Shown here: positions 1-23,444 of the stretch, piece by piece
Position numbering within the stretch: the first letter of the stretch is position 1
How the letters are laid out: each line of letters starts with the position of its first letter
Source: a bacterium
Lineage (GTDB): Bacteria > UBP6 > UBA1177 > JAKLFG01
Direction: 5' to 3'
Assembly: GCA_022709425.1 (NCBI GenBank)
Contig: JAKLIW010000001.1
Span: forward strand, 17,552-81,551
Length of the DNA stretch: 64,000 nucleotides
Notes under the pieces: generated by a model
The model's input: the letters and a program-made list of their open reading frames with translations, nothing else
Database searches by the model: none
Told to the model about the DNA's origin: nothing
Translations under genes and position numbers: made by a program

Positions 1-260
1 GTCGGCTGATATTTCATCTCGATGAGACGCTTTTTTTCCTCGACCTTACGCTTAAGAAGCGACTGTATCTCCCGCTGATAGTCGCCAATGAGAGCCTCAT
101 AGCGCAATATTTGGCGCTCTATATAATCATTCTCAAAACGCTGTGCATCAACTACAATGGCCGCATCTTCGGCCGGTCTGGTTTTTGGGGGGGCATCCGC
201 ACCGACAAGCAATGCCGGAAGGATCGCGACCATGATCATGAGTACGGTCCGAACACTCAT
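1..260 (-). CDS. secreted coiled-coil protein, N-terminal part (gene continues beyond window start)
   Basis: Minus-strand ORF with ATG at 258-260 (MSVRTVLMIMVAILPALLVGADAPP... signal peptide), open to the window edge. Its start overlaps the stop of the downstream gene by 4 nt (ATGA coupling). Confidence 0.45.
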   Translation of the reverse strand, partial: MSVRTVLMIMVAILPALLVGADAPPKTRPAEDAAIVVDAQRFENDYIERQILRYEALIGDYQREIQSLLKRKVEEKKRLIEMKYQP

Positions 261-2578
261 TCAAGATTCTCCAGATTCAGGTAGAGCTCCTGTATCTCCA
301 GAGCCATGCGTGTCCGCATTTTATTCAGGGTCTGTGTCGCCTCTTCCTTTTTTTCCCACGCCACGTCGATTATCCCCAGATCCGCCTGCAGGATCAACTC
401 GTCAAAAGTGTTATGCACTTTTGTAATATTCGAGAGCATCGCCAATGATGCCGCCTCGTTCGTTTCTCGCTTCAGAAGAGCAAGCTGGCTTTTGTATTCT
501 TCTATTTTTATCTTTTCGCTCTCAAAAGAATCTCGTATGTTTTGTATGATGCCGCCGATTACCTCATTAAGTTTGGCATTGAATCCTTCGACCTTCCGCG
601 AGAGCTCCTCTATGCTCGCCGACGCCTGATCGAATTGTTCGCGCTGGAGTGATGACTGCATCGGTGCGACCTTCAAGAGCGCATCCTGTTCTGAAACGAT
701 TTTATTGTAAGAGTCGCGCGCTATGATCATTTGCGAGAACATATCGCCGCCCAGCAAAAGGTGATTCTTTTCCGATTCGGTCTCTTGCTTGAACTGTATT
801 ATCTGTTCCAAGAACTTCAGCACCCGACTTTTTTCTTGCTCGATCTTTTCGACGATACGCTGATCGGTGTTACCGGACTGCGTCGTGCTTCTCAAATAAT
901 AGGTCGCTATCGAATCAAGCTGGTCATGCAACGAACGCATCTGTAACGAAGCACGATGTATCTCCTCTTCCAACGCCAATATCTGTTCGGCGTACCGAGT
1001 GACCGTCGCCTCAAGTTCTTGGCTTGAGCGAGGCAGCAGTTCTTGCAGTTTTTTCTGTAATTCTTGTTTGCCCTTGTCGATTTCACGGTAGCGGTTCTTC
1101 TCTTTTTCCGGCAAGGCATTTAACGTGAGCTCGGCACGTATGGTCAGAAGATCATCGCGTAAACGAAGCAATCGATTTTGAAAAGAAAGGACCCTTTCGG
1201 TGCCCTCCTTAAGCGGAGGAAATATCGCTGCGGCATTTTTGTTGCCGATGATGGTATTCAGTTTGTTCTCTAGTTTCGCCACTTGTTCCAGTTCCAACTC
1301 TATCCCTTTTAGGTCATCCTGCAAGCGAACCGCATGGGAGAACTTCTTATTGTCTTTGAGGAGAGATCGAACTAATGGGGAATAAACGGAAAACTGGACG
1401 TTCTCGGCAGAATCCTCTCCGTCGAAAACCGTCCGTCCACTCTTTTCCAGAGTGCTCAGTTGTTCGCGAATATCGACATACTCCTTGACTATCTTATTGA
1501 AAAGGACCATCGCATCGCCGTACTTGCGCAACTTGACAAGAAGATTTCCCTCCAACAATTCAGCCTGTGGAACTACGATGGATCCGGGCGCGATGTATTT
1601 TATGAGGCGCAATGCCTCCAGCGCTTTTTCGAATTGTTCCCTCTTGATATAGGCCCAACAGAGTTCGAAATATGCCTCGGCAAAAAGATCTGAACTGCGA
1701 TCCAGCTTCAGGTAATAATCGGTTGCGCCGGTAAAATCACCTTTTTCAAACAGCAATCGGCCCAAGGCAAGGATCGATAGGTTTCGTACCGCCTGGTATT
1801 TAAAGTAGGACGTGCTCGAAGGCAGATCTATCACCTCTTTGAATAAGGGAATCGCCTTATCGATATCGGCAAGCTGTATGTTGATAACCCCGAGAAAGTA
1901 TAAACTCTGAGGATAGTATAACCCCTCTTTTTTGATCGTCTGAAATATCTCCCGAGCCTCGTCATACTGCCTATCGAAGAAAAGAGACTTCCCTAGGAAA
2001 TAGACGAGATCCTGATCACGGGTCATATCGTATCCAATACTCACAAACTCGGAATAATAGGTTTTTGCCTTCGAATACTCGCCGAGATAATAGGCCGCAG
2101 ATATGAGACGCTTCAACGCTTCTACCTGAAACCGGGAATAAGGCTTATCGGTGAGCAGTATCTCGTAGTAGCGCGCAGCAGAAATATAATTGTTGTTGAG
2201 GAAAAGAGATTCGGCAAGTTTGAATATCGCCTCTTCCCAAATAAAGTCTTTTTCTTTGCGCGTGCTGAATAAAGAATAATAGATACCGCCGGAGGAAATA
2301 TAGTCCTTGCGCTGAAAATAATAATCACCCTTCTCTAATTTCTTCGCCGGGGATTCAGTATACTCGCGATTCATAGTAAGCGGAGAAAGATAGCGACCTT
2401 CCGCCCCCATGAAGTCCTCTCGAAGGGAGGAGAGTTCGCGATTAATTGTCTCCATGCGTTTTTCGAAGGAAGAAACGCCTTGCGCGGTAGGTTGCTGCGC
2501 GTACAGCTCAGCAACGGTCAACACTATACACAACATCGTGGCGATTAGCCGCGCCGATATGTAGCGGTGTGCTGTCAC
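257..2578 (-). CDS. secreted TPR / coiled-coil protein (773 aa)
   Basis: N-terminal signal peptide (LIATMLCIVLTVAELYAQQ). TPR-like Y/A/L-rich repeats in the central part and a long coiled-coil C-terminal half. Start and stop both overlap neighbouring genes, consistent with an operon. Confidence 0.6.
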   Translation of the reverse strand: MTAHRYISARLIATMLCIVLTVAELYAQQPTAQGVSSFEKRMETINRELSSLREDFMGAEGRYLSPLTMNREYTESPAKKLEKGDYYFQRKDYISSGGIYYSLFSTRKEKDFIWEEAIFKLAESLFLNNNYISAARYYEILLTDKPYSRFQVEALKRLISAAYYLGEYSKAKTYYSEFVSIGYDMTRDQDLVYFLGKSLFFDRQYDEAREIFQTIKKEGLYYPQSLYFLGVINIQLADIDKAIPLFKEVIDLPSSTSYFKYQAVRNLSILALGRLLFEKGDFTGATDYYLKLDRSSDLFAEAYFELCWAYIKREQFEKALEALRLIKYIAPGSIVVPQAELLEGNLLVKLRKYGDAMVLFNKIVKEYVDIREQLSTLEKSGRTVFDGEDSAENVQFSVYSPLVRSLLKDNKKFSHAVRLQDDLKGIELELEQVAKLENKLNTIIGNKNAAAIFPPLKEGTERVLSFQNRLLRLRDDLLTIRAELTLNALPEKEKNRYREIDKGKQELQKKLQELLPRSSQELEATVTRYAEQILALEEEIHRASLQMRSLHDQLDSIATYYLRSTTQSGNTDQRIVEKIEQEKSRVLKFLEQIIQFKQETESEKNHLLLGGDMFSQMIIARDSYNKIVSEQDALLKVAPMQSSLQREQFDQASASIEELSRKVEGFNAKLNEVIGGIIQNIRDSFESEKIKIEEYKSQLALLKRETNEAASLAMLSNITKVHNTFDELILQADLGIIDVAWEKKEEATQTLNKMRTRMALEIQELYLNLENLE

Positions 2579-3315
2579 TTGGCAGTCGGTTGCTGTTTGT
2601 CGGAATCGTCCGCAACAGGCTTCTGCTCGTAAGCCTTTTTGTCGATATCAAAAGAAATATATAGCCGGTTATCGAGCTTCACCAATGATCCTCGATCCAT
2701 CGCAGTGGTCGACACCTCCACCAATTGCCCCTCTTCCACATTAAAAGAGTAGCCCGCTTTCAACTTGAAGGTGTATCCTTCCATGTAGGAAAAGACTCCG
2801 TAGCCCTTGCCGCGGAACACGAGATAGACCGATAGATGGTGCGGCCCCGGCACCACCGATCCGTCAAAAACGGACATTTCCGATTTGAGTTCGGCGACGC
2901 CCCCCTCGACCCATTTATAAATGGGTGCCTCGTCAAGGTAGTAGACCACCGAAATGAGATCAAAGGCATCGCCCACGTCATTGAGGTGAACAACAGATGC
3001 CCGAGCGCCGGCAAGCGCTCCTGAAAGAACGGTCTCCTGAAGTATCGCCAACCGCTGTTTCGCCCTGAATACCTTATCTTTTAGAGAATTTATTTTTTCT
3101 TCTAGGTTTCGCATCTTGAGGTTAAACTCCGAATCGGAACCGGTCTCTTTCTTCACCGCTGTCGAATCATCGTTCGTCACGACCGGCGGAGTTACCGTCT
3201 CTGGTTTGTCAGGTGTTTCTGCCTGTGGCATAGGCTCCTGCGCCATTATCAACGAAGGGAGAAGAAGGAATAATATCAGAAGTATCGGCATCGGAAATGT
3301 CTTGCTCATGAGCAA
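2575..3315 (-). CDS. secreted hypothetical protein (246 aa)
   Basis: Signal peptide (ILLILFLLLPSLIMAQEP), Pro/Thr-rich linker and a short coiled-coil. No recognisable catalytic motif. Confidence 0.45.
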   Translation of the reverse strand: MLMSKTFPMPILLILFLLLPSLIMAQEPMPQAETPDKPETVTPPVVTNDDSTAVKKETGSDSEFNLKMRNLEEKINSLKDKVFRAKQRLAILQETVLSGALAGARASVVHLNDVGDAFDLISVVYYLDEAPIYKWVEGGVAELKSEMSVFDGSVVPGPHHLSVYLVFRGKGYGVFSYMEGYTFKLKAGYSFNVEEGQLVEVSTTAMDRGSLVKLDNRLYISFDIDKKAYEQKPVADDSDKQQPTAK

Positions 3316-3368
3316 ACCTCGAAAAATCCGGCCTACTATATATTATGAGACAAATGAAATCAATTTTT

Positions 3369-4187
3369 TTACACGTGCTCTATGGCAACAAGCGGGCGCT
3401 CTAGAAACAACTCTCCGGTGCGCCGGAAGGTCTCTGCGGAATCGGTAACAAAAAAACGCTCTTCACCCGATTTGTGGGATTCGTTTGCCACATGCCGTTC
3501 CGACAATATCTTTTTTAATTCCCGAGCCGTGTAATACGCCGAATCCATAATGCGTACGCGATGACCAAAATAATAATCAATCGGGCGCAGCAGGAGAGGG
3601 TAATGGGTGCAACCAAGGATAAGGGTGTCAATCTCGGCCCGCTTTAATCCCGAAAGATAATAATCCACCGCCTGCATGGTCAAAGGATGATCCACGATTC
3701 CTTCCTCGACCAAGGGGACGAAAAGAGGACAATGCTGTGCGAAAACCTCCACCCGCATATGCTCCAAGATCGCCCGTTGATAGGCATTGCTGTGGATGGT
3801 GGTCGCGGTGCCGATTATGCCTACCTTTTTCACCTGATCAAGCTTGATAAGATTTTCGACGACCGGCTGTATTACTCCAAGGATCAAAAGATCAGGGAAA
3901 CACTCATGAAGGTATGCTATCGCCGCTGCCGAAGCGGTATTGCAAGCAACGACCACCACTTTGACGCCTTTTTCGATAAGAAATCGAACGTTTATCTCGG
4001 AATACTGCTTGATGACCTCCGGCGACTTGGTACCATAGGGAACCCGCGCCGTATCGCCAAGATAGATCAGATGTTCATGGGGCAGTACCTTGCGGATCTC
4101 CTTGAAGACGGTCAATCCGCCGATACCAGAATCAAAGATACCGATAGGGCGCTCATTGAAAACAACTTCTTTCTTCTGCTTGATCAT
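3369..4187 (-). CDS. murI: glutamate racemase
   Basis: Contains GIFDSGIGGLTV and the VVACNTASAAAI active-site Cys motif, then a second GCTHYPLL half-site. Length 272 aa, typical of MurI. Confidence 0.85.
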   Translation of the reverse strand: MIKQKKEVVFNERPIGIFDSGIGGLTVFKEIRKVLPHEHLIYLGDTARVPYGTKSPEVIKQYSEINVRFLIEKGVKVVVVACNTASAAAIAYLHECFPDLLILGVIQPVVENLIKLDQVKKVGIIGTATTIHSNAYQRAILEHMRVEVFAQHCPLFVPLVEEGIVDHPLTMQAVDYYLSGLKRAEIDTLILGCTHYPLLLRPIDYYFGHRVRIMDSAYYTARELKKILSERHVANESHKSGEERFFVTDSAETFRRTGELFLERPLVAIEHV

Positions 4188-4230
4188 ATCGTGCTGTTCT
4201 TCTTCAGAGAATAAACCGGCAAAAACAGGA

Positions 4231-4845
4231 TCAGATGCCGAAAGAGTACTTCATGTAGGGCATCACCGTGAGCCCCATGCCGTCGAAACTAAGAATATAA
4301 TCGAATTTGACGGTCATGCCGATCGAGAAGTGACGGGTGAAGGTGTAGTACTCGGCATCGATACCGGCGCCGATCATAATGAACATGTCCGTTTCCTTAC
4401 CGTCCACATCTTTCGCTTTCCCCATGAGGAGAAAGTCGGCGCCGACATCCAGACCGATCTCCCAGCGTTTGTTGATGCAGTAGGTCGGACTGATACTCAG
4501 GCCCGCAAGGACCGGGGCATAATCCTCGACCCACGGAGAAACCGACAGGGAGGAATCGGTGTTAAGTTGCAGGATACCGAATTTCCCATGTATCCCCAAC
4601 GAAAAAGCATCGACTATCTGGATGTCGTAGCCAAAAGCAAGATTCACAACCGATCCGATCGGGTCGGAATAGTCGGCGGCGTTCCCGAAAATGACGAACA
4701 TGCCGCCCGACATCGTCGAACTCAAGCCCTTAAGTACCGGCTCAAGGTCGTTGCCCGAAGCGTCTCCCACAGTCTCTTCTTCTGCTTCGGCCGCCCAAAG
4801 TACCGACGCCCCAAGAAGGAGCAGAATAACCAACAGTTTCTTCAT
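4231..4845 (-). CDS. small outer-membrane beta-barrel protein (GltH/NfsH-like, 204 aa)
   Basis: Signal peptide (LLLLGASVLWAAEA), alternating hydrophobic beta-strand pattern and an aromatic C-terminus (KYSFGI). Size and position after the AgmX-like gene match GltH/NfsH. Confidence 0.5.
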   Translation of the reverse strand: MKKLLVILLLLGASVLWAAEAEEETVGDASGNDLEPVLKGLSSTMSGGMFVIFGNAADYSDPIGSVVNLAFGYDIQIVDAFSLGIHGKFGILQLNTDSSLSVSPWVEDYAPVLAGLSISPTYCINKRWEIGLDVGADFLLMGKAKDVDGKETDMFIMIGAGIDAEYYTFTRHFSIGMTVKFDYILSFDGMGLTVMPYMKYSFGI

Positions 4846-4860
4846 GCCGATACTCCTCCC

Positions 4861-6276
4861 TTATCCTTCCGAGTGCTTGAAGACGAACGGATAGTTGACG
4901 ATAACGATACCGCCACCCTTTGGCGCTGGGAACCGGATCTTTTTGATCTGGTCCGCAACGCAACCCTCAACGTTCTCGTTCCCCATCGTGGAGCGCTGAA
5001 CCTTCGAACTGGAAACCTGCCCCGTCTTCGAGATGATGAAGTTGATGACTATCTTACCAAAAAGTTTTGGATCCTTGTTGAGTTCCTTTTCATAGCACCA
5101 ACGAATCTTGGCAAGGTTACGCTTGATATAGGCGTCGATGACCGCGCGATCGAGCGCGCCCATGATGACCGCCTGTCCGCCGCCTGCAGTAATAGCCGAG
5201 AGACCCTTACCGCCGATGCGGCCAGCCGCCATACCGTAGCCCATACCGCCCATACCGCCGCCGCCCCTCCCGCGGGTGCCCAAACCGCCGATACCGAGCG
5301 CATTTCCGCCGCCGCCGGTACCGAAACCTCTGGTCCCCAGACCACCGGAGCCGAACTGGTCGACGCCACTGATGCCGGTGACCGAGCCAAGAGTCTTATC
5401 CATGCCGGCACCCAGACCACCGCCGCCGAATATACGGTCAAAACTGGCCGCACCCGAAGAAAGAGCGCCCATGACGCCCGAACTCTGCGCGACCTTCTCA
5501 TCTAGGCCACGGCGGGCGGAACCCTGCGCATTGGCCACACGGCTCTTCTTGTCACCCACGCGCCCCTCTTCGCCAAGAGATTTTCTTTGCTGGGTGGCCT
5601 CGACCAATCCCTCTTTGGGCTTCTCGAGCTTGACCTTCTTTTCTTTCTCTAGATCCTCAACCTGAACATCATCCTGATTGCTTACGATCATGTTCGCAAA
5701 GCGGTTGTCGATCTCGAATATGTCGACCTCTATGGGCGGCGTTTCAACGATCATGTTCATGATGAAGAAACCGATGATAAAAGTGACCAACATTATGAGA
5801 ACCGAGGTCATCTCGCGATTCTCGATGAGCCCTGCCGGTTTCAGTTTTTCATGCGGGGTTTTCAATGCAACAACGGAAATATCACCAAACTCGAGAACGG
5901 CAAAATTATCAGCACCTATTTCGTAGCTTTTTTTCGCCAGAACCGTAGCAATATCCTTCTTTTCTTTTTTCTCTACGACATATCCCTTGAACCCCTCCTT
6001 GAGATTCAAGGTCATTTGATCGCCGACAACACTAATAAGTTCGAACGAATCCTCAGGGAAGGCACTCTCGTCGAACATAAGGTCGACCTTTTTTGGGTCG
6101 GTAGAAGAACCGACCACATACGCTTTCGTAACAACTCTACTCTCTCGCAAAGTGTTCGGCTTGAAGACGACCCTCACTTCCGGATCAAGCTTGCCGGAGA
6201 ACCCCTCGTTCACTGGGGGACGAGGAATCGGGGAGAGATCGTACAGCAGCCTTTTCTTCACATTCTCATTCGGCAT
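4861..6276 (-). CDS. AgmX/PglI (GltG/NfsG)-like TonB-family protein
   Basis: Single TM (VLIMLVTFIIGFFIMNMIV), a long Gly-rich segment (GGGGMGGMGYG...), and a C-terminus AVIDAYIKRNLAKIRWCYEKELNKDPKLFGKIVINF matching the AgmX/PglI C-terminal (TonB-C-like) signature. Confidence 0.7.
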   Translation of the reverse strand: MPNENVKKRLLYDLSPIPRPPVNEGFSGKLDPEVRVVFKPNTLRESRVVTKAYVVGSSTDPKKVDLMFDESAFPEDSFELISVVGDQMTLNLKEGFKGYVVEKKEKKDIATVLAKKSYEIGADNFAVLEFGDISVVALKTPHEKLKPAGLIENREMTSVLIMLVTFIIGFFIMNMIVETPPIEVDIFEIDNRFANMIVSNQDDVQVEDLEKEKKVKLEKPKEGLVEATQQRKSLGEEGRVGDKKSRVANAQGSARRGLDEKVAQSSGVMGALSSGAASFDRIFGGGGLGAGMDKTLGSVTGISGVDQFGSGGLGTRGFGTGGGGNALGIGGLGTRGRGGGGMGGMGYGMAAGRIGGKGLSAITAGGGQAVIMGALDRAVIDAYIKRNLAKIRWCYEKELNKDPKLFGKIVINFIISKTGQVSSSKVQRSTMGNENVEGCVADQIKKIRFPAPKGGGIVIVNYPFVFKHSEG

Positions 6277-6321
6277 AACACGGGCCCCATTTATGCGGTT
6301 GTTGATATACGACCATCATAG

Positions 6322-6615
6322 TTATTTAAGTACATCCACCGATTTTACCAGTTCCTTGTTGAAATCCTTTTTCAGGTTGATGAGTGAATTGAATTTTGTT
6401 TTGGTACGATCCATCAAGAAAGATCCGGAAGGCTTCTTTATCTGCCCTTCCAACATGACATCTTCGAAGTCAATGACCGTTTTTTGACGATAGACGACCT
6501 TTCTTCCCTCTGCGTCCATTTCTCCCGTGTCGGTTGCGGCGGCGGCGCCTTCTTCCTGAGCATAGGCCCCGAACGCCCCCAGCACGAGGACCAATACGAA
6601 GAAGAGTTTTCTCAT
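6322..6615 (-). CDS. small secreted protein (GltF/NfsF-like position)
   Basis: 97 aa with signal peptide MRKLFFVLVLVLGAFGAYAQ. Lies between the TPR and AgmX-like genes, as gltF/nfsF does. Confidence 0.45.
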   Translation of the reverse strand: MRKLFFVLVLVLGAFGAYAQEEGAAAATDTGEMDAEGRKVVYRQKTVIDFEDVMLEGQIKKPSGSFLMDRTKTKFNSLINLKKDFNKELVKSVDVLK

Positions 6616-6633
6616 GAGTTCCTCCTTTTGGGT

Positions 6634-7815
6634 TTAGTTCTGTGGTGCCTGTTCATCATCTGAAGGCCGAATCTTTACCTTGTCGGCGATATATTTATGA
6701 ACAATATGATCCTGTCCGATATCGCCGCCTATACTGAGATACTTTCTGAAAAGACTCTGCGCTTCCACCTTTTTGTTAAGATGGTCGTGATACAGTACGC
6801 CCAGATTAAAAACCGCAAGCGGGTTATTCGGATCCTTGTCAAGCACCTTCTTATATTCCGCTTCTGCTTCGGTAAAGTTGCCCATTCCACGATGAGCGAG
6901 CGCAAGACCGACGCGCGCATCCATATTGTCGGGATCCTGCGCAAGAACTATCGAAAAGTGTTGGAAAGCGCGTTCCGCATCGCCGTAAGACATGGCCATT
7001 GAGCCAACATTGAAGTTAGCCGCCTTATTGGCTTGGTCATTGTTGATCGCGCTGGTGTAGTAGAACATCGCGAGCGAATCGTCATTCTGATAGTGGAATA
7101 TTACTCCGCGGTTGTTCGAGATACCGGCATCGTTGGGATTCAGATTATAGGAGTTGGTCGTAACCATGTTCGCCAGACCGGTGTCTTTTTTGATCAGGTA
7201 GATCATGCCGAGGTTTTTGAGCGCGTCGACATTGGAAGGCTCCTGAATGAGTATCTTGCGGACCGACTCGATCGCCTTAAGAAAGTCGAGTTTCTTCAGA
7301 TAAAAACCGGCAACGGCTGAAAGAACCGCTTTATCCTTGGGGTTCTCCTCTAGGAATTTCTCACACACATCTATAGCGCGGTTGTATTCGAGTTTATTGG
7401 CGTAGATGGCCGCCTTGTTGATAACGGGACGCGCATAGGCCGGCTCTATCTGAAGTGCGGCGTTGTAGTTTTTCACCGCATTCTCGTCATCGCCCATCTG
7501 CTGATAAGCTAACCCCAGATTGAACCAAACGGTTGAAGACTTCGGATAGGCTTCCGCGGCAAAGGTAAAATGTCTTATGGCACCAGCGAAGTCAGCCTTG
7601 CCCTTTTTAACCTCAAGAGCATCTATCCCTTTTTGAGTGTGAAATTTCGCATATTCCTCGGGAGTGGTGGGGCGATCAGTAATCGAAAGACGCTTCTTTT
7701 CCGGTTCTTTTTTACCGGCATCCGCCTTTGCCTCTTGTGTCGATTTGCAAGACACCGCCAAAAAGAAAATCGCCAACACAATGGCTGCAAACAGGGTCGT
7801 TCTTTTCATCATCAT
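6634..7815 (-). CDS. TPR-repeat lipoprotein (GltE/NfsE-like)
   Basis: Lipobox (FFLAVSC) after MMMKRTTLF. Multiple TPR motifs (AYQQMGDDENAVKNYNAALQIEP, etc.). Confidence 0.6.
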   Translation of the reverse strand: MMMKRTTLFAAIVLAIFFLAVSCKSTQEAKADAGKKEPEKKRLSITDRPTTPEEYAKFHTQKGIDALEVKKGKADFAGAIRHFTFAAEAYPKSSTVWFNLGLAYQQMGDDENAVKNYNAALQIEPAYARPVINKAAIYANKLEYNRAIDVCEKFLEENPKDKAVLSAVAGFYLKKLDFLKAIESVRKILIQEPSNVDALKNLGMIYLIKKDTGLANMVTTNSYNLNPNDAGISNNRGVIFHYQNDDSLAMFYYTSAINNDQANKAANFNVGSMAMSYGDAERAFQHFSIVLAQDPDNMDARVGLALAHRGMGNFTEAEAEYKKVLDKDPNNPLAVFNLGVLYHDHLNKKVEAQSLFRKYLSIGGDIGQDHIVHKYIADKVKIRPSDDEQAPQN

Positions 7816-7828
7816 ATGCGCTCTCCCT

Positions 7829-10800
7829 TTAATTCGTCGCTGGGGTCGCCGATTGGGCCGCACCAGCAGGCGCGGCGGCGGGAGCGGTGTGTTCGCTACC
7901 CGACATCTTTCGCATGATATCTTTTTTCTCCTCGTCGGTTATTGCCGGGAACTTGATATCCATATCGACACGACCGATGAGAGAGGAGGTCTCTATCATG
8001 TTGGCACCGGGTACTATCTCGTTTTCATCGTAATATTTACCCGGACGAAGCTCTTGGAAGTTGCGCAATTCGTATTTTGCTTTCTTGACCCAGTCGTTAT
8101 ACACCGAGGTCTCATAACCCTTGAGCATCGCTTTTTCAAGAGCCTCGACCGCCTTCTGGCGCGCATTGAGCGCCTTTTCGTCGAGCATGTTCTTATAGAC
8201 GATCTTCTGGTTCTCATTGAGCCACGGCGGAAGCGGCGCGCTGAACATCTTGTCGGTCATATCGCGGTACATAGCGCCGATGTAGTACAAACTCGCCGGG
8301 GTAAGGCGGGGCGATTTGGTCTGCTCGATGATCTGCATGTAACGCTGTTCCAACTCGACAAGCATTTCTGCTTTCTTGGTCAGACGATCGGTAGTCTCCT
8401 TGTTGAAGGTGTCCATTTCCTTCTTGATGTTCTTGGGAACCGTCGATTCGTCGGCATAGTTTATCTCTTCAGGCTTGTATTTGATGGTCTTGTCGTACTT
8501 GACATTGAGATCTATCGCCATGAACTCCTTGAACTTCGCTTCGGTTTCGACCAACAATGCCTCCGCGATGGTATCCCGGGTCGATTCGGCAAAATCTTCT
8601 TTTTCTTTGAATTGACCATTTTTGTAAAGTTGAAGAATAGCGTCCATGTTCTTGTAATAGTCTTCGTTCTTTGCCTCCTCCTTAGCCATTTTAGCGAGAG
8701 AAGCATACAGCGCGAAGATGGTATTAAGGTCACCTTTGGACACATCAACCGACGAGGCATCTTCTTTGCCCGTCAGTTTTCCTGTCTTGTCGATATAGCG
8801 ATAATCCTTCAATCCTTTGATGGTTGTATAATCAGCAACGAAACGGTCGAAGCCTTTGCGCGCCTTATCATAGTAGGTTTTCCCTTTGCGCATCCAGATA
8901 TAGCCGAATTGAAGCGCGATCTTTGCCTTGTCCTTATCTTCCTTGGCGTGCTTGTCGATGTAGAGCTTATAATTATCAAGCGCCTTTTCTGTGTCGCCAA
9001 GCGCCTCATAAAGAACCGCCGCATTGTAGATGGCATCACCGGCGCTTTTGTGTTGCGCTGCCTTCGCGGCGAAATCGATATAGAGCTCGGCCGCCTTATC
9101 GTAGTAAGCGATCGCCTCGTAGTTCTTTGCAAGACCGAACATGATATCGTTGCGCAGTTTCGATTCCTTGTATAGTTTGCCCGTCTCACTCAAGAACCGC
9201 TCCTGTACACGGATGGACTTATAAAGATCCTCGCCCTTCGCGTAGTAGTAGATCGCGTTGTTGAGGGACACATCATTGAACTTTGAGGCCGGGAACTCGG
9301 TCACGAAAGCAATATAGCGTTCCGCCGAATCTATGGCCTTTCCGTTCTGGGCCGGGAGTTCCGCAGCGTAGAAGGAGGCCATCTCTTTGAACTTCTCAAG
9401 GTCGTCCTTAAGACGATTGCGCCCCGAGATAAGCGCTGAATTGCGGAGCATCTCGCGCGCCTTGTTGCTGATCGCTTCCCAATCCTCGGTGATGTTGAGT
9501 GAATCCATGATGAGATCGGCAGAAAATACGGCAAGCTCCTCACGGGGATACTTTTGAACTATCATTTCGAAAACCGGAACCGATTCCTGATAGTGATTGA
9601 AGGCATAGTAAGTAATAGCCTGCTTATAAATGATGTCAACAAGGTATTTGGAGCGCGGAATGTTCTTGATATAAGTCTCGCAGGCTTTGATAAATTTCTG
9701 CTCAAGTTCGGGTATCGGCTTGGGCTGATATTCAGGCGGGATGCCCTTTTTCTGAGTCACTCCTTTACCCTGGCCGGCAATGGTAACCCTGTTCTGATCG
9801 ATGGCGGTTTCGCCCGCCTTCTTCTTATCGGCCATGTTCTGTTTGATCTCAGCGTTACGCTTGTCCTGCGATTCTTTTAACAGCATACCGAACGCCGAAA
9901 CAGCACCATAGGATGCGTCCTCGAAGTGGGATCCTTTCGGATTAAGGTCGGCGACCACCTGATATTCGTCACCGGCTTGCGCATATTTTTTCTTTTCCCA
10001 GAGGAACTCGGCATAATTGAAGCGGATGTCGTAGGATGCCTCCGACTTGGGATAATATTTGAGATATTTAGGATAGAGCTCTTCGACCACCTTCCAAGTA
10101 TTCTCGGCCTGAGTCTTACGCGCCTCATTGTGATACTCGACCAACAGTATGCGAAGATTCGCCTCGGCGGTCTGCATGGCGCTTTCCACAGAAGTAGCGT
10201 CTTTTGCCGCATTCGCTTTGGCCCAGGAGGAATCCTTGTTACCGTACTTTTCGACGAGGACAAGGATCTCAAGGCGGACATTGTCCTTCATGTTGAGTTT
10301 CTTGTAGCACTCGACGATCTGTTTCTGCCACTGAGGACCTTCCGGGGCGTTCGGGACCTCACTAATGAGTTTGCGGTATATCTTGATCGCCTCTTCATTC
10401 TTATCCTGCTCGAAGTAAATGCCGGCAAGTTTGATAAGAACCATAATGAAGTATTTTTGTTCTTTGACGATGGTCTTAAAGTACTTTTCTGCGTCATCGA
10501 CATTTCCCGCTTCGGCATAGGGCGTAACCATGTCTTTGAGCGCTTCTTCCTTGATCTCGACCTTGTTGAACTTCATCGAGTACTCGACGACGCTATGAAA
10601 GACCTTGATCGATTCTTCATACTCGCCGACATTGTAAAGACACCAAGCATATTTATAAAGCGCATAACCGAAGAAGGGGTTGCTCGGATAGTTGTCAATG
10701 ATCGCCTTGTAGGCAGGCATCGCCTTGAACACGTTGTTGTTGTTGAAAAAATATTCGGCCATTTCATAAAAGGAGTCGGCCGCATACTTGGAGTTCTTAT

Positions 10801-11353
10801 ATTTCTCGGTGACAAGAGTGTAGTAACGAATCGCCGGGAGCGGTTTGCCCACCTCCATCAAGTTCGAGGCCATGAAGAAATAGACCTCGTCGATACCGGT
10901 GAAGTTGGGATATTTCTTAATAATAAAGTCACAGATGTCGGTAGCTTTTTCATTCCATTTCCACGCCTCTTTAAGATCAAGTTCCGGCATGGGAGCATTG
11001 GGATCGTTGAGTTCGTAGTACTTGTCGGTTTTCTTGTTATACTCCTCCATGACGACCGCTTTGATGCCACGGGCCTTTTCCCAGTAAAGTTCGGCGAGAC
11101 GGCGGTAGACTTCTGCTTTTTTCGGTCCTTCGGGGAAATCCTTGAGAAGCTCGAGGAGCTGCTCTATGGCTTTGTCGCGCTGCGCCATGGCTTTGGAATC
11201 GATCTGGACCTTGGTCGCCTCGACCTCCATTTTAGCGGGGCCCTTGACCGACCCACCCTCATCACCTTTTCTTTTTTCGCGCGCGGCAAGGAGCGTTCCC
11301 GCCATAAGCACGACGATTGCCGCGATCAGGAGCTTTTTGGTCATGCCGATCAT
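7829..11353 (-). CDS. large secreted TPR protein (1174 aa; GltD/AgmU / NfsD-like)
   Basis: Signal peptide, then TPR/Sel1-like repeats (W/Y-rich helices) throughout. Size and neighbourhood match AgmU/NfsD (~1200 aa). Confidence 0.65.
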   Translation of the reverse strand: MIGMTKKLLIAAIVVLMAGTLLAAREKRKGDEGGSVKGPAKMEVEATKVQIDSKAMAQRDKAIEQLLELLKDFPEGPKKAEVYRRLAELYWEKARGIKAVVMEEYNKKTDKYYELNDPNAPMPELDLKEAWKWNEKATDICDFIIKKYPNFTGIDEVYFFMASNLMEVGKPLPAIRYYTLVTEKYKNSKYAADSFYEMAEYFFNNNNVFKAMPAYKAIIDNYPSNPFFGYALYKYAWCLYNVGEYEESIKVFHSVVEYSMKFNKVEIKEEALKDMVTPYAEAGNVDDAEKYFKTIVKEQKYFIMVLIKLAGIYFEQDKNEEAIKIYRKLISEVPNAPEGPQWQKQIVECYKKLNMKDNVRLEILVLVEKYGNKDSSWAKANAAKDATSVESAMQTAEANLRILLVEYHNEARKTQAENTWKVVEELYPKYLKYYPKSEASYDIRFNYAEFLWEKKKYAQAGDEYQVVADLNPKGSHFEDASYGAVSAFGMLLKESQDKRNAEIKQNMADKKKAGETAIDQNRVTIAGQGKGVTQKKGIPPEYQPKPIPELEQKFIKACETYIKNIPRSKYLVDIIYKQAITYYAFNHYQESVPVFEMIVQKYPREELAVFSADLIMDSLNITEDWEAISNKAREMLRNSALISGRNRLKDDLEKFKEMASFYAAELPAQNGKAIDSAERYIAFVTEFPASKFNDVSLNNAIYYYAKGEDLYKSIRVQERFLSETGKLYKESKLRNDIMFGLAKNYEAIAYYDKAAELYIDFAAKAAQHKSAGDAIYNAAVLYEALGDTEKALDNYKLYIDKHAKEDKDKAKIALQFGYIWMRKGKTYYDKARKGFDRFVADYTTIKGLKDYRYIDKTGKLTGKEDASSVDVSKGDLNTIFALYASLAKMAKEEAKNEDYYKNMDAILQLYKNGQFKEKEDFAESTRDTIAEALLVETEAKFKEFMAIDLNVKYDKTIKYKPEEINYADESTVPKNIKKEMDTFNKETTDRLTKKAEMLVELEQRYMQIIEQTKSPRLTPASLYYIGAMYRDMTDKMFSAPLPPWLNENQKIVYKNMLDEKALNARQKAVEALEKAMLKGYETSVYNDWVKKAKYELRNFQELRPGKYYDENEIVPGANMIETSSLIGRVDMDIKFPAITDEEKKDIMRKMSGSEHTAPAAAPAGAAQSATPATN

Positions 11354-11378
11354 ATCGCTTCCCTTCCTTAGTTATCTG

Positions 11379-13007
11379 TTATTCATCAACACAAGCATTC
11401 TGGATATTGTAGAAATAGTAGCCAAGCTCATCTTCCCAGTATTCGCCGTCGAACGGCCAATAGTAAGCACGGTTCGGCACTGCCGGGGAATAAGACTCCT
11501 CCTCTTTGAGGGCACTCTCTTTAAGTTTCTTCCCATACAGCTCTTCCTTTTCAAGCGTCTCTTTAATCTTATCGGTCATCTCAAAGCGGATAGCCTTCAT
11601 ATCGGCAATGATCTGAGTGAGATCTTGCGCAACCTCCTGTAGTTTCTTAACCAACATTTTTCCGCTGTCATTGCGAAGAGTGGTAAGCTGATAGGTCATC
11701 TTCTTCGAGAGATCGTCGGCGATAACGCTTTTTTTGAAGGCCTCGGGGCTATTTTCTATGACCTCTATTTCGCGTTCTATTTCCTTGATGTGGATATAGT
11801 CGCGCTGGAATTTCTGATCGGTAAGAACACTGCGCAGGATCGCTTCGGGTAGCGGCGTCGGTTTGCCGGCCGCCGAATCGCGATACATGGAAAGAAGTTC
11901 TTTATAGATATCCAACCCGGTCTTGGTGGAGACATTCTCAAGCCATGACTGAAGACGCTGACGGTAATCGGGATACACCAAGAAGAATTTGTCGATGACC
12001 TCGTTGACCTCTTTGTAGCGACAGAGGTTATAGTAGGTAACAGCTTCGACAACATAAACATCGGGGAAATAAATGTCGGTGAAGAAAGGGCTACCAAGGG
12101 TCACAACGGTACCGAGGGTCGAATCGAAACGGCTAATCATAAGGGAGGCCCAAGTCCGCGCAAAGAGCGATTCGAACCACTGCGGGTTACGACGATCGAC
12201 ATTGGTAAAGTAATTAAGCGCAACGTTGAACATCGCAAGCTTGTTCTTGGTCTTCTCATCGAAACCGGCGGCATAGTAAAGTTCGCCAAGCGCCAGTTCC
12301 GCCATCCCCTTGAGCTGTTTGATGTCGGCGCCGACATACATATCGTCTGGCATTTCCATGATCTTCTGGAAACTCTTCATCGCCTCGGCATACATGCGCT
12401 GACGAACCTGGATAACGCCCATGAAATAAGTCGCGAGCGGATAGAACGAACTGTAGTCCTTCACCTGCGTAAAGAATTTCAGAGACTCCTCATCCTGCCC
12501 TTTGTAGAAGTTTATCTTGCCGAGGTAATACATGAGTTCGTTGGCAAACTTTTGGGGGAGCGAGGTGTAATTAACGTTTGAAAGAACCGCGAACAGAACG
12601 CGCTCATCCTTCGTCTCGTAGGTAACCGCAAGGAGTTTAAGGAGCGCTGATACGAAGTAATGACTATCGGGACCTTCAAACAGGATCTCAGCCAATTGAT
12701 ATTCGGCCGACTGATACAATCCCATACGGAACAATGCCTCAGCGTAGTAATAGCGGGCAGTTTCATGAAGGCGAGCCCATTCGCCGTTTTTCATAACGGC
12801 ATAAAATCCTATTGCGGCAGTATGGTAATCACCGCCGTTATAGGCGTCAACGACCTTTTTGATCGCGTCGGGCATACCCTGTACGACCACCGAGTCGATC
12901 TGTTCATATTTCTTCATTTCCTGTTCGCGGACCGTCAACTGTTCAGCACAGGAGACGAACATCCCGACGAGAAGAATGAAGATGACTGCGAGCGCGGTGT
13001 TTTTCAT
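11379..13007 (-). CDS. TPR-repeat lipoprotein (GltC/NfsC-like)
   Basis: Lipobox LLVGMFVSCAEQ, N-terminal TPR repeats and a C-terminal coiled coil. 542 aa. Confidence 0.6.
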   Translation of the reverse strand: MKNTALAVIFILLVGMFVSCAEQLTVREQEMKKYEQIDSVVVQGMPDAIKKVVDAYNGGDYHTAAIGFYAVMKNGEWARLHETARYYYAEALFRMGLYQSAEYQLAEILFEGPDSHYFVSALLKLLAVTYETKDERVLFAVLSNVNYTSLPQKFANELMYYLGKINFYKGQDEESLKFFTQVKDYSSFYPLATYFMGVIQVRQRMYAEAMKSFQKIMEMPDDMYVGADIKQLKGMAELALGELYYAAGFDEKTKNKLAMFNVALNYFTNVDRRNPQWFESLFARTWASLMISRFDSTLGTVVTLGSPFFTDIYFPDVYVVEAVTYYNLCRYKEVNEVIDKFFLVYPDYRQRLQSWLENVSTKTGLDIYKELLSMYRDSAAGKPTPLPEAILRSVLTDQKFQRDYIHIKEIEREIEVIENSPEAFKKSVIADDLSKKMTYQLTTLRNDSGKMLVKKLQEVAQDLTQIIADMKAIRFEMTDKIKETLEKEELYGKKLKESALKEEESYSPAVPNRAYYWPFDGEYWEDELGYYFYNIQNACVDE

Positions 13008-13022
13008 GCTTGGTTACCTCTC

Positions 13023-13907
13023 TCAGTCGGCGAACGGCAGGAACATGCCGAAGTTGATGGTGAAGAGCGTATCGGTCTTGAGATACGAGCTCTTCGCGTT
13101 AGTCGTTGCTCCGAGCTTGAAACGCTCGTCGCCCATCAGATACCAGTCGAGATTGAGCGACAGGAAGAAGTTGTTGGTGATGAAAAACCGACCGGCGAAC
13201 CCGGCATTCACCGCGAACCGATGACCGGTCTCTTCGCGGGCTCCTTTCTGCAAAAGAACCTGATAGTAGTTGCCGCCCAGCGAGACATTGAGATCGTATT
13301 TCGGTATGAAGTTGCCGAACAGACTGAGTTTGCCGTAGAACGGAGTGAACACGACCGAGAGACCGCCCGCCATAACGGCGTTACTCGAAGAAACCTCGGC
13401 GTTGAGTTCGTTGACCTGCTTACGCGTCTCGCGCTCCCAGTTTATGGGAGCATAAAAGAATCGTCCCTGAACGGCGAAGAGATCATTGATGTTGTAGGCG
13501 ATCTGAGCACCAACGGTCATCGAATCATCCCAGTCACCGACGATGAAACCAACGCCCACACCCATCTCAACGCGACCTTCCTTGTAGAACTCGCGTTTCT
13601 GAACGACTTTTATCTTTTTCTTTTTATCGACGGAGAGCTCGCGCATCTCCTTTTCGAGCTTGGGATCGGCCGCCGCCTGCGAAACGGCAAGATTGGCCGT
13701 CTGTGTTTCGGGAGTCGCCGCAGCTTCGCCCTCTGCGGGAACGCCGCCCTCAACCGGAGCTACCGCGCCATCGGCCGGCGCGCCATCGGTCGGGGCCCCC
13801 TCAGCGCCAGCACCACCTTCGAGGTCGAACAGGTCGGCCGCGCCCAAATTAAGAGAGAACACACTCGCGAGGAAAACCGTCAAAACCGCCAGTTTCATCT
13901 GTTTCAT
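13023..13907 (-). CDS. outer-membrane beta-barrel protein (GltA/B / NfsA/B-like)
   Basis: Start most likely MKQMKLAVLTVFLASVFSL (signal peptide). Ala/Gly/Pro-rich low-complexity N-terminal region, then an amphipathic beta-strand pattern and C-terminal ...FGMFLPFAD. Confidence 0.5.
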   Translation of the reverse strand: MKQMKLAVLTVFLASVFSLNLGAADLFDLEGGAGAEGAPTDGAPADGAVAPVEGGVPAEGEAAATPETQTANLAVSQAAADPKLEKEMRELSVDKKKKIKVVQKREFYKEGRVEMGVGVGFIVGDWDDSMTVGAQIAYNINDLFAVQGRFFYAPINWERETRKQVNELNAEVSSSNAVMAGGLSVVFTPFYGKLSLFGNFIPKYDLNVSLGGNYYQVLLQKGAREETGHRFAVNAGFAGRFFITNNFFLSLNLDWYLMGDERFKLGATTNAKSSYLKTDTLFTINFGMFLPFAD

Positions 13908-14117: not shown

Positions 14118-14235
14118 AAAGAGGCGACGACCTACTTTTCCATGGGGGGACCCCACAGTATCATCGGCGCGGGAGCGTTTCACGACTGAGTTCGGGAAGG
14201 GATCAGGTGGTACCACTCCGCAATCGTCACCTCAA
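14118..14235 (-). rRNA. rrf: 5S ribosomal RNA
   Basis: The reverse complement contains CCTGATCCCTTCCCGAACTCAGTCGTGAAACGCTCCCGCGCCGATGATACTGTGGGG, the conserved 5S core. A T-tract (A8 on the plus strand at ~14111-14118) follows on the transcribed strand. Ends are approximate. Confidence 0.65.
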
Positions 14236-14289
14236 GGGTAGGGACTCACGGTCAAGTGAGATCCGGCACTGGTCTTGGAATTACATAAC

Positions 14290-17222
<2,933 letters not shown>

Positions 17223-17356
17223 ATGCCTGTTATGTGTTACCAAGACCAGAGCCGGTTTCACTCAACCGACTTCCCTTTATCACTTTGAAAAGAACACGGC
17301 AAAAGCCGTCAATCATGAACCCGTCGGATCCATCATTCACCGCTCTCGCGAAAACA

Positions 17357-17431
17357 TGGTGGAGGATAGGAGGCTCGAACTCCTGACCCCCTGCGTGCAA
17401 GGCAGGTGCTCTCCCACTGAGCTAATCCCCC
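17357..17431 (-). tRNA. tRNA-Ala (TGC)
   Basis: Reverse complement is GGGGGATTAGCTCAGTGGGAGAGCACCTGCCTTGCACGCAGGGGGTCAGGAGTTCGAGCCTCCTATCCTCCACCA. Clean cloverleaf with the G3:U70 alanine identity pair. Sits in the 16S-23S spacer. Confidence 0.85.
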
Positions 17432-17475
17432 GCACGTCTCGAATACCAAAGAACTCAACCTCAAACGCGAAACAT

Positions 17476-17552
<77 letters not shown>

Positions 17553-17602
17553 GAGTCTCATTCAAAACTGAGCAGCAACGAGAGACGCTTATTTTTCCGT
17601 GA

Positions 17603-19127
<1,525 letters not shown>

Positions 19128-19334: not shown

Positions 19335-19961
19335 TTATTTTTGAAGAGAGCGGGGGCTCAGAGTACCGACGATGCGCGCCGTCAGCGCCTCGACCAGTGC
19401 CGCGCTTCGCCGTATCCGCCCCTTGCAGAAATTGAAAAATATGATGGCGGGAATGGCGACGCCGAGGCCGACCGCCGTGGCGATGAGCGCCTCGGAGATA
19501 CCGCTCATAACGGCCTGCGGGCCGCCTTTAGTGGCTACCGCGAGATCAGCGAAGCTCTTCATTATGCCGAGCACCGTACCGAGCAATCCCACGAACGGCG
19601 CGTTGGAGCCGACGGTGCCGAGGAAGTCGGTGAATCGTTCCCACTGCTGGCGCGCCGTGATGAGGCGGGCGTTCACCAGTTCACGGAAGGCTTCGCCGGT
19701 ATCGGGCGCCTCGTTGAGAGCGTCAGCAACGATACGGGCCTCCTCACCGCGCACCGAGGCAAGGGCCGTCAGTATCGCGGCTCGATCTTTTGCCGCGGCA
19801 AGGGCGGCATGCAGTCTCCCCTCGTCGCGGACCAGCGTCCGGCGATAGTAGAAGAGCCGTTCGATGAAGAAGGCGACCGTGAAGAAAGAGATGATGAATA
19901 GAAGATACAGTATCGCGCGGGCCGCGTAGAAGGCGAAAAGCGATATCTGAGCGGTTATCAT
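19335..19961 (-). CDS. MotA/TolQ/ExbB-family proton channel protein
   Basis: Three predicted TM helices. Conserved C-terminal region GLLGTVLGIMKSFADLA, typical of ExbB/TolQ/MotA. No adjacent ExbD/TolR/MotB partner. Confidence 0.75.
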   Translation of the reverse strand: MITAQISLFAFYAARAILYLLFIISFFTVAFFIERLFYYRRTLVRDEGRLHAALAAAKDRAAILTALASVRGEEARIVADALNEAPDTGEAFRELVNARLITARQQWERFTDFLGTVGSNAPFVGLLGTVLGIMKSFADLAVATKGGPQAVMSGISEALIATAVGLGVAIPAIIFFNFCKGRIRRSAALVEALTARIVGTLSPRSLQK

Positions 19962-19988
19962 GACGATCCTCCGTGATCAATATCGATT

Positions 19989-22150: not shown

Positions 22151-22487
22151 TCATCATGATGCGACCGGCGAGACGTTCGCCGAATAACAGGCAAGCCGTC
22201 TGGGCAATGGTCCGGCGCAGATCGTCAGCCTGCACCCCTTCCCATCTCAGGCGGATACCGACCCCCTCTTTTCCTTCTTCGTTCACACCATGGTACACGA
22301 CGGTCCCCGGAATAGTGAATGAGCGGTCGATCGCTGCCGAGGTGATCACGAAGTTGAGATCGGCACCCAGCGGATAGCGATGTTTCATCTTCATGAATAT
22401 CCATCCGCGGCTGAGCGATCTGATATAATCGAAGAGGAACGTGTTGAATTTTTTATACTCGAGCCTCAAGGTCGTTTGATCGGTCAT
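22122..22487 (-). CDS. small PilZ-like domain protein (tentative)
   Basis: 121 aa with an RxxxR element (IRSLSRG) followed ~30 aa later by a D-x-S-containing stretch (AIDRSFTIPG). The match to the PilZ motifs is imperfect. Confidence 0.3.
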   Translation of the reverse strand: MTDQTTLRLEYKKFNTFLFDYIRSLSRGWIFMKMKHRYPLGADLNFVITSAAIDRSFTIPGTVVYHGVNEEGKEGVGIRLRWEGVQADDLRRTIAQTACLLFGERLAGRIMMIAEEHGDGI

Positions 22488-23400: not shown

Positions 23401-23444
23401 CCGAAACATCAACGAAAAAAAAGAAAATAACCGAGAAAAAAAGA

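Follow-up and report, generated by a model that had tools for sequence, protein, structure and literature searches.

What would a set of genes resembling the Glt gliding and Nfs spore-coat machineries of Myxococcus xanthus do in an uncultured anaerobic bacterium that is not a myxobacterium? The question is raised by positions 1-13907 of a 64,000-nucleotide (nt) stretch of contig JAKLIW010000001.1 (assembly GCA_022709425.1), called the window throughout, for which a preliminary description had proposed a minus-strand operon in the order nfsA/B-C-D-E-F-G-H. In a 2011 survey (PMC3169522), gltA/B and gltF did not extend beyond Myxococcales and Bdellovibrionales, and gltH was confined to Myxococcales. 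From its relatives, we infer that the host of the window belongs to or is close to UBP6, a candidate phylum known from genomes alone and recovered from rumen, anaerobic sludge, sediments, and caves (PMC7820578, PMC7382037, PMC11382960), and a literature search found no published link between UBP6 and gliding. The array would therefore place homologs of gltA/B, gltF, and gltH outside Myxococcales and Bdellovibrionales, in a candidate phylum without a cultured member. By analogy with M. xanthus, the answer that we favor on balance is that the array couples the proton-motive force to secretion, movement, or anchoring of a surface polysaccharide.

Two modules in one array

The array consists of a first module of Glt/Nfs-type genes (module 1), murI, and a paralogous module 2 accompanied by motor and exporter genes, a total of 24 co-directional genes over ∼30.1 kb, of which 13.9 kb (the upstream 46%) lie inside the window. 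Positions 1-13907 hold ten complete minus-strand open reading frames (ORFs), at 13979/13907-13023, 13007-11379, 11353-7829, 7863/7815-6634, 6615-6322, 6276-4861, 4845-4231, 4187-3369, 3315/3309-2575, and 2578/2536-257, and an eleventh, also co-directional, that is cut by the window start; its ATG at 260 overlaps the preceding stop (ATGA) and its reading frame exits the window start. When start codons are adjusted to fit signal peptides and recorded products, intergenic spacings are 15, 25, 13, 18, 45, 15, 43, 53, and -4 nt, and the ORF list, sizes, and gaps of -4 to 53 nt agree with the eleven packed genes of the preliminary description. Every product except murI and a 471-aa protein has a signal peptide or PROSITE-type lipobox, and the G+C content of the cluster is 49.6%, compared with 57.8% for the rest of the window (20000-64000).

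Module 1 is supported, by profile matches and gene order, as a complete Glt/Nfs-type set with one A/B-type barrel followed by GltC, D, E, F, G, and H homologs. Pfam recognized only TPR repeats and the racemase among the window products, and the specific matches came from NCBIfam hidden Markov models (HMMs). The first gene (13023..13907, minus strand, as are all genes of the array) encodes a putative GltA/B (NfsA/B)-type outer-membrane (OM) beta-barrel of 294 aa from ATG 13907, in an ORF that opens at TTG 13979 (318-aa form). Its match to TIGR04565 (OMP_myx_plus) is borderline, at 56.7 bits just under the cut-off of 60, and its positional counterparts reach 56.7 bits in a Bdellovibrio and 68.9 bits in a Myxococcota cluster. 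A signal peptide is followed by a long low-complexity N-terminal region, and related clusters likewise begin with this gene. All 20 ortholog sites found have the same mature N-terminus, DLFDL[DEN][GS]; by analogy with M. xanthus GltB, in which a TonB-box-like N-terminal strand is predicted to bind GltC, it may be a docking strand.

The second gene (11379..13007) encodes a 542-aa GltC/NfsC-like TPR lipoprotein with a visible lipobox (...GMFVSC) and conserved synteny, which matches NF033756 (gliding_GltC) with E = 6.5e-83, residues 29-541 aligning to model positions 101-621 of 622 at 279.5 bits (cut-off 450). The giant TPR protein that follows (1174 aa, 7829..11353), GltD/NfsD-like in its position, has a signal peptide without a lipobox cysteine. 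It shares 32% identity over 1164 aa (E = 3e-165) with the GltD-position protein of a Myxococcota cluster from a metagenome-assembled genome (MAG), and 26-33% identity over 65-98% of its length with same-position proteins in more than 20 other clusters. Since the GltD-position proteins of Myxococcota and Bdellovibrio clusters match only YbgF/BamD-type TPR models, NCBIfam seems to lack a GltD model. Next is a GltE-like TPR lipoprotein (6634..7815, 393 aa from ATG 7815 in a 409-aa ORF) with a visible lipobox (...LAVSC) and a 393-aa product on record; it matches NF033758 (gliding_GltE) with E = 3.9e-40, residues 31-395 aligning to model positions 5-374 of 411 at 138 bits (cut-off 225). A small secreted protein of 97 aa (6322..6615) matches NF033764 (gliding_CglF) with E = 6.5e-15 (residues 4-94 on model positions 3-86 of 88, 54.9 bits, cut-off 90) and has same-position homologs in Myxococcota and Bdellovibrio loci at 27-54% identity. 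We take CglF to be GltF, after Pathak and Wall (2012), and the 97-aa protein is called GltF-like here.

The 471-aa protein (4861..6276) resembles GltG/NfsG, an inner-membrane transducer of TolA/TonB type, and matches NF033760 (GltG) with E = 7.8e-77, residues 25-469 aligning to model positions 197-648 of 650. As the preliminary description had it, the C-terminal part is of the AgmX/PglI type rather than classical TonB, with 106.6 bits on NF033768 (cut-off 40) against 24.8 bits on the classical TonB C-terminal model TIGR01352 (cut-off 27.1). An AlphaFold2 model built from 18 sequences has a beta-sandwich at 10-145 (pLDDT ∼90), a predicted transmembrane (TM) helix at 156-178, a glycine-rich segment predicted to be disordered (183-369), and a confident alpha/beta domain at 370-468, and a Foldseek search with it ranked TonB C-terminal domains (5lw8, 2gsk, 7zc8) ahead of FHA domains (1uht, probability 0.98). 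The predicted layout is thus an FHA-like domain, a TM helix, a disordered linker, and a domain resembling the TonB C-terminal domain (TonB-CTD). In M. xanthus GltG, the FHA-like domain before the TM helix is the predicted docking site for the AglR pentamer, and another FHA domain, the first in the protein, is the predicted contact for GltI, a cytoplasmic scaffold (PMC11761067). That first domain is missing here, in agreement with an HMM alignment that begins at model position 197. The last gene of module 1 (4231..4845) encodes a predicted 204-aa OM beta-barrel resembling GltH, formerly named CglE (PMC9946355), with 82.3 bits on NF033755 (gliding_CglE, cut-off 70) and residues 38-202 aligned to model positions 3-172 of 172.

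Six of the seven products of module 1 match myxobacterial gliding-family HMMs (E = 1e-15 to 1e-83) and the whole gene order recurs in ∼20 independent MAG loci, which argues that the pattern is not due to chance. To find them, a GltG alignment was used to scan species-representative genomes, and the window proteins were compared by tblastn with the 80 loci obtained. The ∼20 UBP6-like loci, which include UBP6_UBA1209, UBA1177, and UBA1196 as well as rumen and digester MAGs, hold the full order barrel-C-D-E-F-G-H-(murI)-246 aa-773 aa at 37-96% identity (61-96% for GltG). More than 20 loci from Myxococcota, 'Deltaproteobacteria', and Bdellovibrio MAGs share barrel-C-D-E-F-G(-H), with identities that vary among the proteins (23-54%). 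The published nfsA-H order is A/B-C-D-E-F-G-H in a single cluster without I, J, and K (PMC3858216), and the correspondence in order drawn in the preliminary description is upheld by the NCBIfam matches and by its conservation in UBP6-like, Myxococcota, and Bdellovibrio MAGs; likewise, the GltC and GltE matches and conserved synteny assign the TPR proteins to the Glt family rather than to unrelated TPR families. UBP6-like genomes also contain further GltG-like paralogs, 55-60% identical (L018 8063-11386, L025 7971-10945), some without the N-terminal domain, directly downstream of a YfbK-type von Willebrand A (VWA) protein. They were considered as motor sites and rejected, their neighbors being YfbK-type VWA proteins and not Glt or TolQ/TolR genes.

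Between the two modules stands murI (3369..4187), whose glutamate racemase product scores 231 bits on TIGR00067 (cut-off 146.65). It holds this place in most relatives and is absent at the site in three (L003, L006, L009). The preliminary description was correct that murI is embedded in the operon of the window, yet the gene is a variable passenger there, and we rejected it as an integral part of the machine.

The remaining window genes of the array, for 246-aa and 773-aa proteins and the cut eleventh gene, are by paralogy and synteny the start of a second module. The first, X (2575..3309, 244 aa from 3309 or 246 aa from the ORF start at 3315), combines a signal peptide with a coiled coil and a C-terminal part rich in beta structure, and had no family match in Pfam and NCBIfam; its single-sequence AlphaFold2 model (pLDDT 44) is unusable. 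The second, C' (257..2536), is a GltC paralog, TPR in its N-terminal half and coiled coil in its C-terminal half, and matches NF033756 with E = 6.6e-13. Its 759-aa form from ATG 2536 is on record as an exact product on six contigs, and the 773-aa form from an alternative GTG at 2578 has no exact match. The third, D', is a GltD paralog of 1105 aa whose first 86 codons (1..260), with frame and signal peptide visible, lie in the window. By blastp, C (542 aa) and C' (773 aa) are 24% identical over 346 aa (E = 3e-18), D (1174 aa) and D' 23% over 735 aa (E = 2e-43), the GltE-like protein and E' 25% over 325 aa (E = 9e-18), the GltF-like protein and F' 28% over 43 aa (E = 6e-4), and the C-terminal domains of the GltG-like protein and G' 33% over 100 aa (E = 1e-15).

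The two modules are separable, as in the CALOFP01 genome module 1 stops at GltH and is followed by unrelated genes, and X-C'-D'-E'-F'-TolQ-TolR-TolR-G'-Y-Z-OPX-PCP-RlpA-SpoIID lies ∼170 kb away as a locus of its own. X also opens the free-standing module 2 of L090, and its homologs (32-33% identity) head equivalent cassettes in L091 and L092. On these grounds, X and C' of the window are assigned to module 2 and not, as originally suggested for the last secreted TPR/coiled-coil genes, to the same complex as module 1.

In relatives, the genes after the 773-aa one encode a protein of ∼1100 aa, a lipoprotein of ∼550 aa, and a small protein with a GltF-like motif, and a TolQ-like gene then begins. 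The corresponding region of the window genome was read from overlapping contigs, three of which (L085, L086, L087) have 0 mismatches to the window over 12,536 nt; a fourth (L093) has 0 mismatches over 2,967 nt and reaches the end of the array, which thereby runs 16.2 kb past window position 1. D' is complete on contigs with 0 mismatches. After it come E' (554 aa, GltE model 5.6e-26), F' (79 aa, with a GltF-like motif), a TolQ-like MotA_ExbB protein (216 aa, Pfam), two TolR-like ExbD-family proteins (182 aa, Pfam 4.5e-11, and 198 aa, Pfam 1.9e-7), and G' (454 aa), which matches GltG (2.8e-50), AgmX/PglI (98.7 bits), and GltJ (2.6e-17), the last over model positions 370-671 only, i.e., the membrane and periplasmic part. 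Y (232 aa) and Z (448 aa) have no family match, and a metagenome scan with Y found a single relative, which revealed the exporter genes. These encode an outer-membrane polysaccharide export (OPX) protein of 199 aa (Poly_export+SLBB) and a Wzc-like polysaccharide co-polymerase (PCP)/kinase of 715 aa (Wzz+GNVR+AAA_31), and they are followed by RlpA-SPOR (216 aa, DPBB_1+SPOR), SpoIID (384 aa, Pfam), and queA (345 aa, Pfam), after which stands a convergent thioredoxin gene. A 5-nt patch differs between the otherwise identical assemblies L085 (12899-12905) and L086 and splits D' (202 + 890 aa) in the JGI contig, reflecting either a local variant or an assembly error.

The motor and a second TolQ-like gene

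The AglRQS-type motor named in the preliminary description has its counterpart 5.1 kb past the window start, in the same array, where the identical contigs carry one TolQ-like gene and two TolR-like genes. One TolQ-like and two different TolR-like proteins are, as far as sequence goes, the AglR/AglQ/AglS pattern. In an alignment by eye, the 198-aa TolR-like protein has a TM aspartate (LMDIL) and the 182-aa protein an asparagine at the aligned place (AMNLIL). The in-array TolQ-like protein scores 46 bits on the TolQ model (cut-off 221), and 23 bits were obtained on the TolR model (cut-off 127). The trio is conserved in L006, L032, L088, L089, and L090. In UBP6_UBA1196 (L032 11427-15749), TolQ-TolR-TolR and RlpA stand directly after GltH-murI, without X, C', D', E', F', and G' at that site, which connects the motor with module 1 too. 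In the predicted M. xanthus AglR5QS complex, which resembles TolQ5R2, GltG occupies the position of TolA (PMC11761067).

The preliminary description had instead drawn attention to an 'orphan' MotA/TolQ gene at 19335-19961 (minus strand), here TolQ208. This gene lies on the far side of an rRNA operon from the cluster. The operon, which is complete and also on the minus strand (14119-19126), is directly upstream of the cluster, 211 nt from its first start codon, and comprises 16S rRNA (19126-17602), tRNA-Ile, tRNA-Ala, 23S rRNA (17223-14293), and 5S rRNA (14234-14119). TolQ208 matches both ExbB and TolQ models and shares only 31% identity over 104 aa with the in-array TolQ-like protein, and the window contains no ExbD/TolR partner and no TonB neighbor for it. 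A 57% identical homolog in a UBP6-like genome (L084) sits in an ExbD-TonB-ExbB-Plug/CarboxypepD_reg cluster. The arrangement of TolQ, rRNA operon, and cluster is shared with L082, whose 16S rRNA is ∼97% identical, and other relatives have unrelated upstream genes. A functional link read from the shared order was rejected, as the order reflects close kinship, and TolQ208 was rejected as the motor on account of the intervening rRNA operon, the lack of a TolR partner, the context of its homolog, and the variable upstream genes. By homology it is an ExbB-type gene that lost its neighbors, not a Glt motor.

Polysaccharide handling, gliding, or housekeeping

The end of the array bears on what the machine may act upon. 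OPX and a Wzz+GNVR+AAA_31 protein are present in the array of the window genome and in those of L088, L089, and L090. The OPX proteins of the array and its relatives are 199-224 aa long with Poly_export+SLBB domains, and the match of OPX to the M. xanthus EpsY model covers positions 55-210 of 211 (3.4e-26); this alignment and this length leave no room for an OM-spanning domain. In Myxococcus, Class-3 OPX proteins have an adjacent 18-stranded barrel (EpsX, ExoB, WzpB) and PCP partners (PMC9601211, PMC9603273). Here, OPX is preceded by an ∼450-aa secreted protein with a C-terminal aromatic residue and followed by the PCP/tyrosine kinase. That protein, Z, sits at the position of the barrel partner and has a signal peptide and a C-terminal ...LAADY, with a homolog that gives a faint BBP2_2 match, and is thus a putative beta-barrel partner of OPX.

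Cassettes of X-C'-D'-E'-F'-G'-Y-Z without motor genes occur in two high-GC MAGs (L091, L092), with OPX following in L091. In L092 (13489-16168), the genes after the cassette encode a hexapeptide acetyltransferase, a DegT aminotransferase, and a GFO/IDH/MocA oxidoreductase, a trio that resembles the set making di-N-acetylated uronic acid sugars. M. xanthus offers related connections. AglRQS also powers Nfs, which spreads the Exo polymer from a Wza-type system (PMC3858216); MXAN_1922 is the gltD homolog of the G4 cluster, whose function is unexplained (PMC3169522), and WzaB/WzpB are MXAN_1915/1916 (PMC9603273). By locus tags alone, MXAN_1922 is six genes from wzaB/wzpB, which suggests the same linkage in M. 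xanthus. Neither the OPX literature (PMC9601211, PMC9603273) nor the Glt literature mentions linkage to the other system.

A mechanism can be drawn by combining these elements. An inner-membrane proton channel resembling TolQ5-TolR2 would drive conformational cycles of the TolA-like GltG and G', whose FHA-like domain and TM helix would dock on the channel and whose TonB-like C-terminal domains would cross the peptidoglycan via the long disordered linkers. These domains would engage a periplasmic TPR scaffold (D/E/F and D'/E'/F') that GltC and C' would tie to the OM barrels, and RlpA and SpoIID could supply wall remodeling during polymer deployment. The activity would be like that of Agl-Nfs on the Exo spore-coat polymer and could also yield surface gliding. 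The polysaccharide-handling function is suggested by an array that ends in an export pair and wall-remodeling enzymes.

Several observations weigh against this reading. All Glt HMM scores except those for CglE and AgmX/PglI are below NCBIfam equivalog cut-offs, so that the module-1 products are best taken as family-level homologs, not orthologs, of the gliding proteins. The genes beyond the window are assigned to its genome through identical overlapping contigs alone, and promoter and terminator scans gave counts near shuffled expectation and no operon boundaries that would speak for co-transcription. No Wzx/Wzy, glycosyltransferase, or sugar-synthesis genes are found in the array, and the barrel fold of Z is itself a prediction. 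Adjacency with OPX/PCP, RlpA, SpoIID, and queA may be mere co-location, and queA is clearly unrelated. Finally, the mechanism is modeled on M. xanthus, and the lineage is known here from sequence alone.

The strongest competitor is a true gliding machine, in which motor and transducers travel along the cell, engage OM barrels at fixed adhesion sites, and push the cell, like Agl-Glt in Myxococcus and, presumably, the Bdellovibrio counterpart. Luciano et al. proposed AglRQS together with GltA/B, C, D, E, F, and G as the mark of a potential glider, and Bdellovibrio glides without GltH, I, J, and K (PMC3169522). The array has AglRQS-like genes and homologs of each of these Glt proteins, the gene set named as that mark (PMC3169522), with GltH/CglE above cut-off as well, and its relatives live on particles in rumen and digesters (PMC7820578). 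Pfam and NCBIfam found no GltI, GltJ with ZnR/GYF, GltK, or CglB-type adhesin among the 24 genes, however, and no match to the MglA/AglZ cytoplasmic platform. GltG is also without the N-terminal FHA domain predicted to bind GltI (PMC11761067), and the genes at the end of the array are for polysaccharide export and wall enzymes, not for adhesins or polarity regulators. We therefore regard gliding as rather unlikely, and of the two uses named in the preliminary description, gliding motility or spore-coat assembly, the exporter and wall genes favor polysaccharide handling of the Nfs/Exo kind.

The TolQ/TolR/TolA-like architecture also fits an equivalent of Tol-Pal, devoted to proton-driven OM tethering or constriction and septal peptidoglycan remodeling. 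Its large TPR proteins match YbgF/CpoB models (TIGR02795, up to 9e-26), peptidoglycan enzymes (murI, RlpA-SPOR, SpoIID/LytB) share the array, and every UBP6-like locus retrieved contains the array, as expected of a housekeeping system. Such a role is nevertheless improbable, as the whole array is without a TolB or Pal family match, Glt-family models and not TolA/TolQ/TolR equivalogs give the best matches, OPX and PCP are foreign to Tol-Pal, and murI is dispensable at the site in three relatives. An ordinary TonB-ExbB-ExbD uptake system with TPR accessories, energized by TolQ208, would account for the TonB-CTD fold of the 471-aa protein, for the ExbB/TolQ matches of TolQ208, and for the TolQ-rRNA-glt order in one relative. 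That relative is only genus-level distant, with others having unrelated upstream genes; TolQ208 has no ExbD partner in the window and a homolog in a separate ExbD-TonB-ExbB-Plug cluster; the TonB C-terminal model is below cut-off and AgmX/PglI far above; and the array has no TonB-dependent receptor (Plug, TonB_dep_Rec). We consider this explanation highly improbable.

Known systems, implications, and other genes of the window

Among characterized machineries, M. xanthus Nfs has the same contiguous A/B-C-D-E-F-G-H order without GltI, J, and K, a TolA-like AgmX/PglI G protein, a TolQ/TolR-type motor, and a functional association with a Wza-type exporter in which a short OPX is paired with a beta-barrel, ExoA/ExoB (PMC9601211). 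Nfs differs in having two A/B-type barrels where the array has one, and in having motor and exporter at separate loci rather than in one array. The array adds a second paralogous C-D-E-F-G module, its identities to Myxococcota homologs are 23-54%, and its host is uncultured and non-myxobacterial, with no evidence of sporulation.

The Agl-Glt machinery, encoded in G1 (gltK-B-A-C), G2 (gltD-J), and M1 (aglRQS), shares protein families with the array (PMC3169522, PMC11761067) and the same inferred force path, from proton channel to TolA-like protein, TPR scaffold, and OM barrels. Both have two TonB-like inner-membrane proteins (GltG and GltJ in M. xanthus). Nothing in the array matches GltI, GltK, or CglB, G' is without the cytoplasmic ZnR/GYF part of GltJ, GltG is without the first FHA, the GltD homolog is not a lipoprotein, and the genes are contiguous instead of split over three loci as in M. 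xanthus. The core complex described by Luciano et al. in 2011 occurs in some Gamma- and Betaproteobacteria, Geobacter, and Fibrobacter, where a single region unites gltC, D, E, and G with aglR, Q, and S (PMC3169522). Module 2, likened to it by description, joins C', D', E', and G' with a TolQ-like and two TolR-like genes, but adds F', X, Y, and Z and stands in tandem with 'Group A' homologs (gltA/B, F, H).

With Tol-Pal and TonB-ExbB-ExbD the array shares a TolQ/ExbB-type channel, TolR/ExbD-type plugs, CpoB-like TPR repeats, and a single-pass protein whose long periplasmic linker leads to a TonB/TolA-like C-terminal domain. Unlike them, it has two different TolR-like subunits, an FHA-like domain before the TM helix, and very large TPR scaffolds, without TolB, Pal, or a TonB-dependent receptor, and its Tol/Exb equivalog scores are far below cut-offs. 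Class-3 OPX translocons (EpsY-EpsX, ExoA-ExoB, WzaB-WzpB) have the same arrangement of candidate barrel (Z), short OPX, and PCP (PMC9601211, PMC9603273), but the array has no nearby Wzx/Wzy or glycosyltransferase genes.

Since 2011, it has been a question what the ancestral Glt-like core did and what the Myxococcus G4 and G5 clusters do (PMC3169522). Motor, two transducer modules, and polysaccharide exporter are contiguous here and scattered in Myxococcus, and the array predicts coupling of a Glt-like core to Class-3 OPX export. We tentatively raise the possibility that Glt-like core complexes were originally proton-powered helpers of Class-3 OPX secretion and that the UBP6 array preserves the whole apparatus, in which motor and two transducer modules would pull or guide the polymer to a short-OPX/beta-barrel exit with local wall remodeling. 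If so, gliding (Glt) and spore-coat wrapping (Nfs) would be specializations of help in polymer secretion, and M. xanthus G4 (the MXAN_1922 region, near wzaB/wzpB) would be predicted to act in secretion of the biosurfactant polysaccharide. For UBP6 bacteria of rumen and digesters, the array suggests an active surface-polymer or gliding apparatus, which bears on particle colonization.

Other genes of the window were noted in passing. On the minus strand, glmU (19989-20972) looks C-terminally truncated, its 327 aa covering model positions 4-307 of 452 with most of the acetyltransferase (hexapeptide) domain missing; the frame at 19744-20061 was rejected as its continuation, as the translation has no hexapeptide repeats. 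A run of regulatory and cell-shape-type genes at 20930-31335 (minus strand) includes a response-regulator/histidine-kinase hybrid, a PilZ-like protein, HPF, NAD kinase, a glucosaminidase whose ORF start overlaps tRNA-Arg (23445-23521), a PEGA-domain kinase of the PknB-like type, a ParA/MinD-DnaJ-HTH_25 fusion, and a 1191-aa TPR-transglutaminase protein. Three Moco/tungsten riboswitch aptamers within 5 kb, at 58760-58879 (minus), 61551-61672 (plus), and 63344-63464 (plus), surround moeA (59706-60893) and an aldehyde dehydrogenase (in ORF 61244-63295); a long plus-strand ORF (56520-58883), without a family match and overlapping the aptamer of the minus strand, may be a mis-called frame. At 40818-42101 on the minus strand, next to a beta-propeller repeat protein, a full-length serpin is encoded (Pfam Serpin, E = 8e-98).

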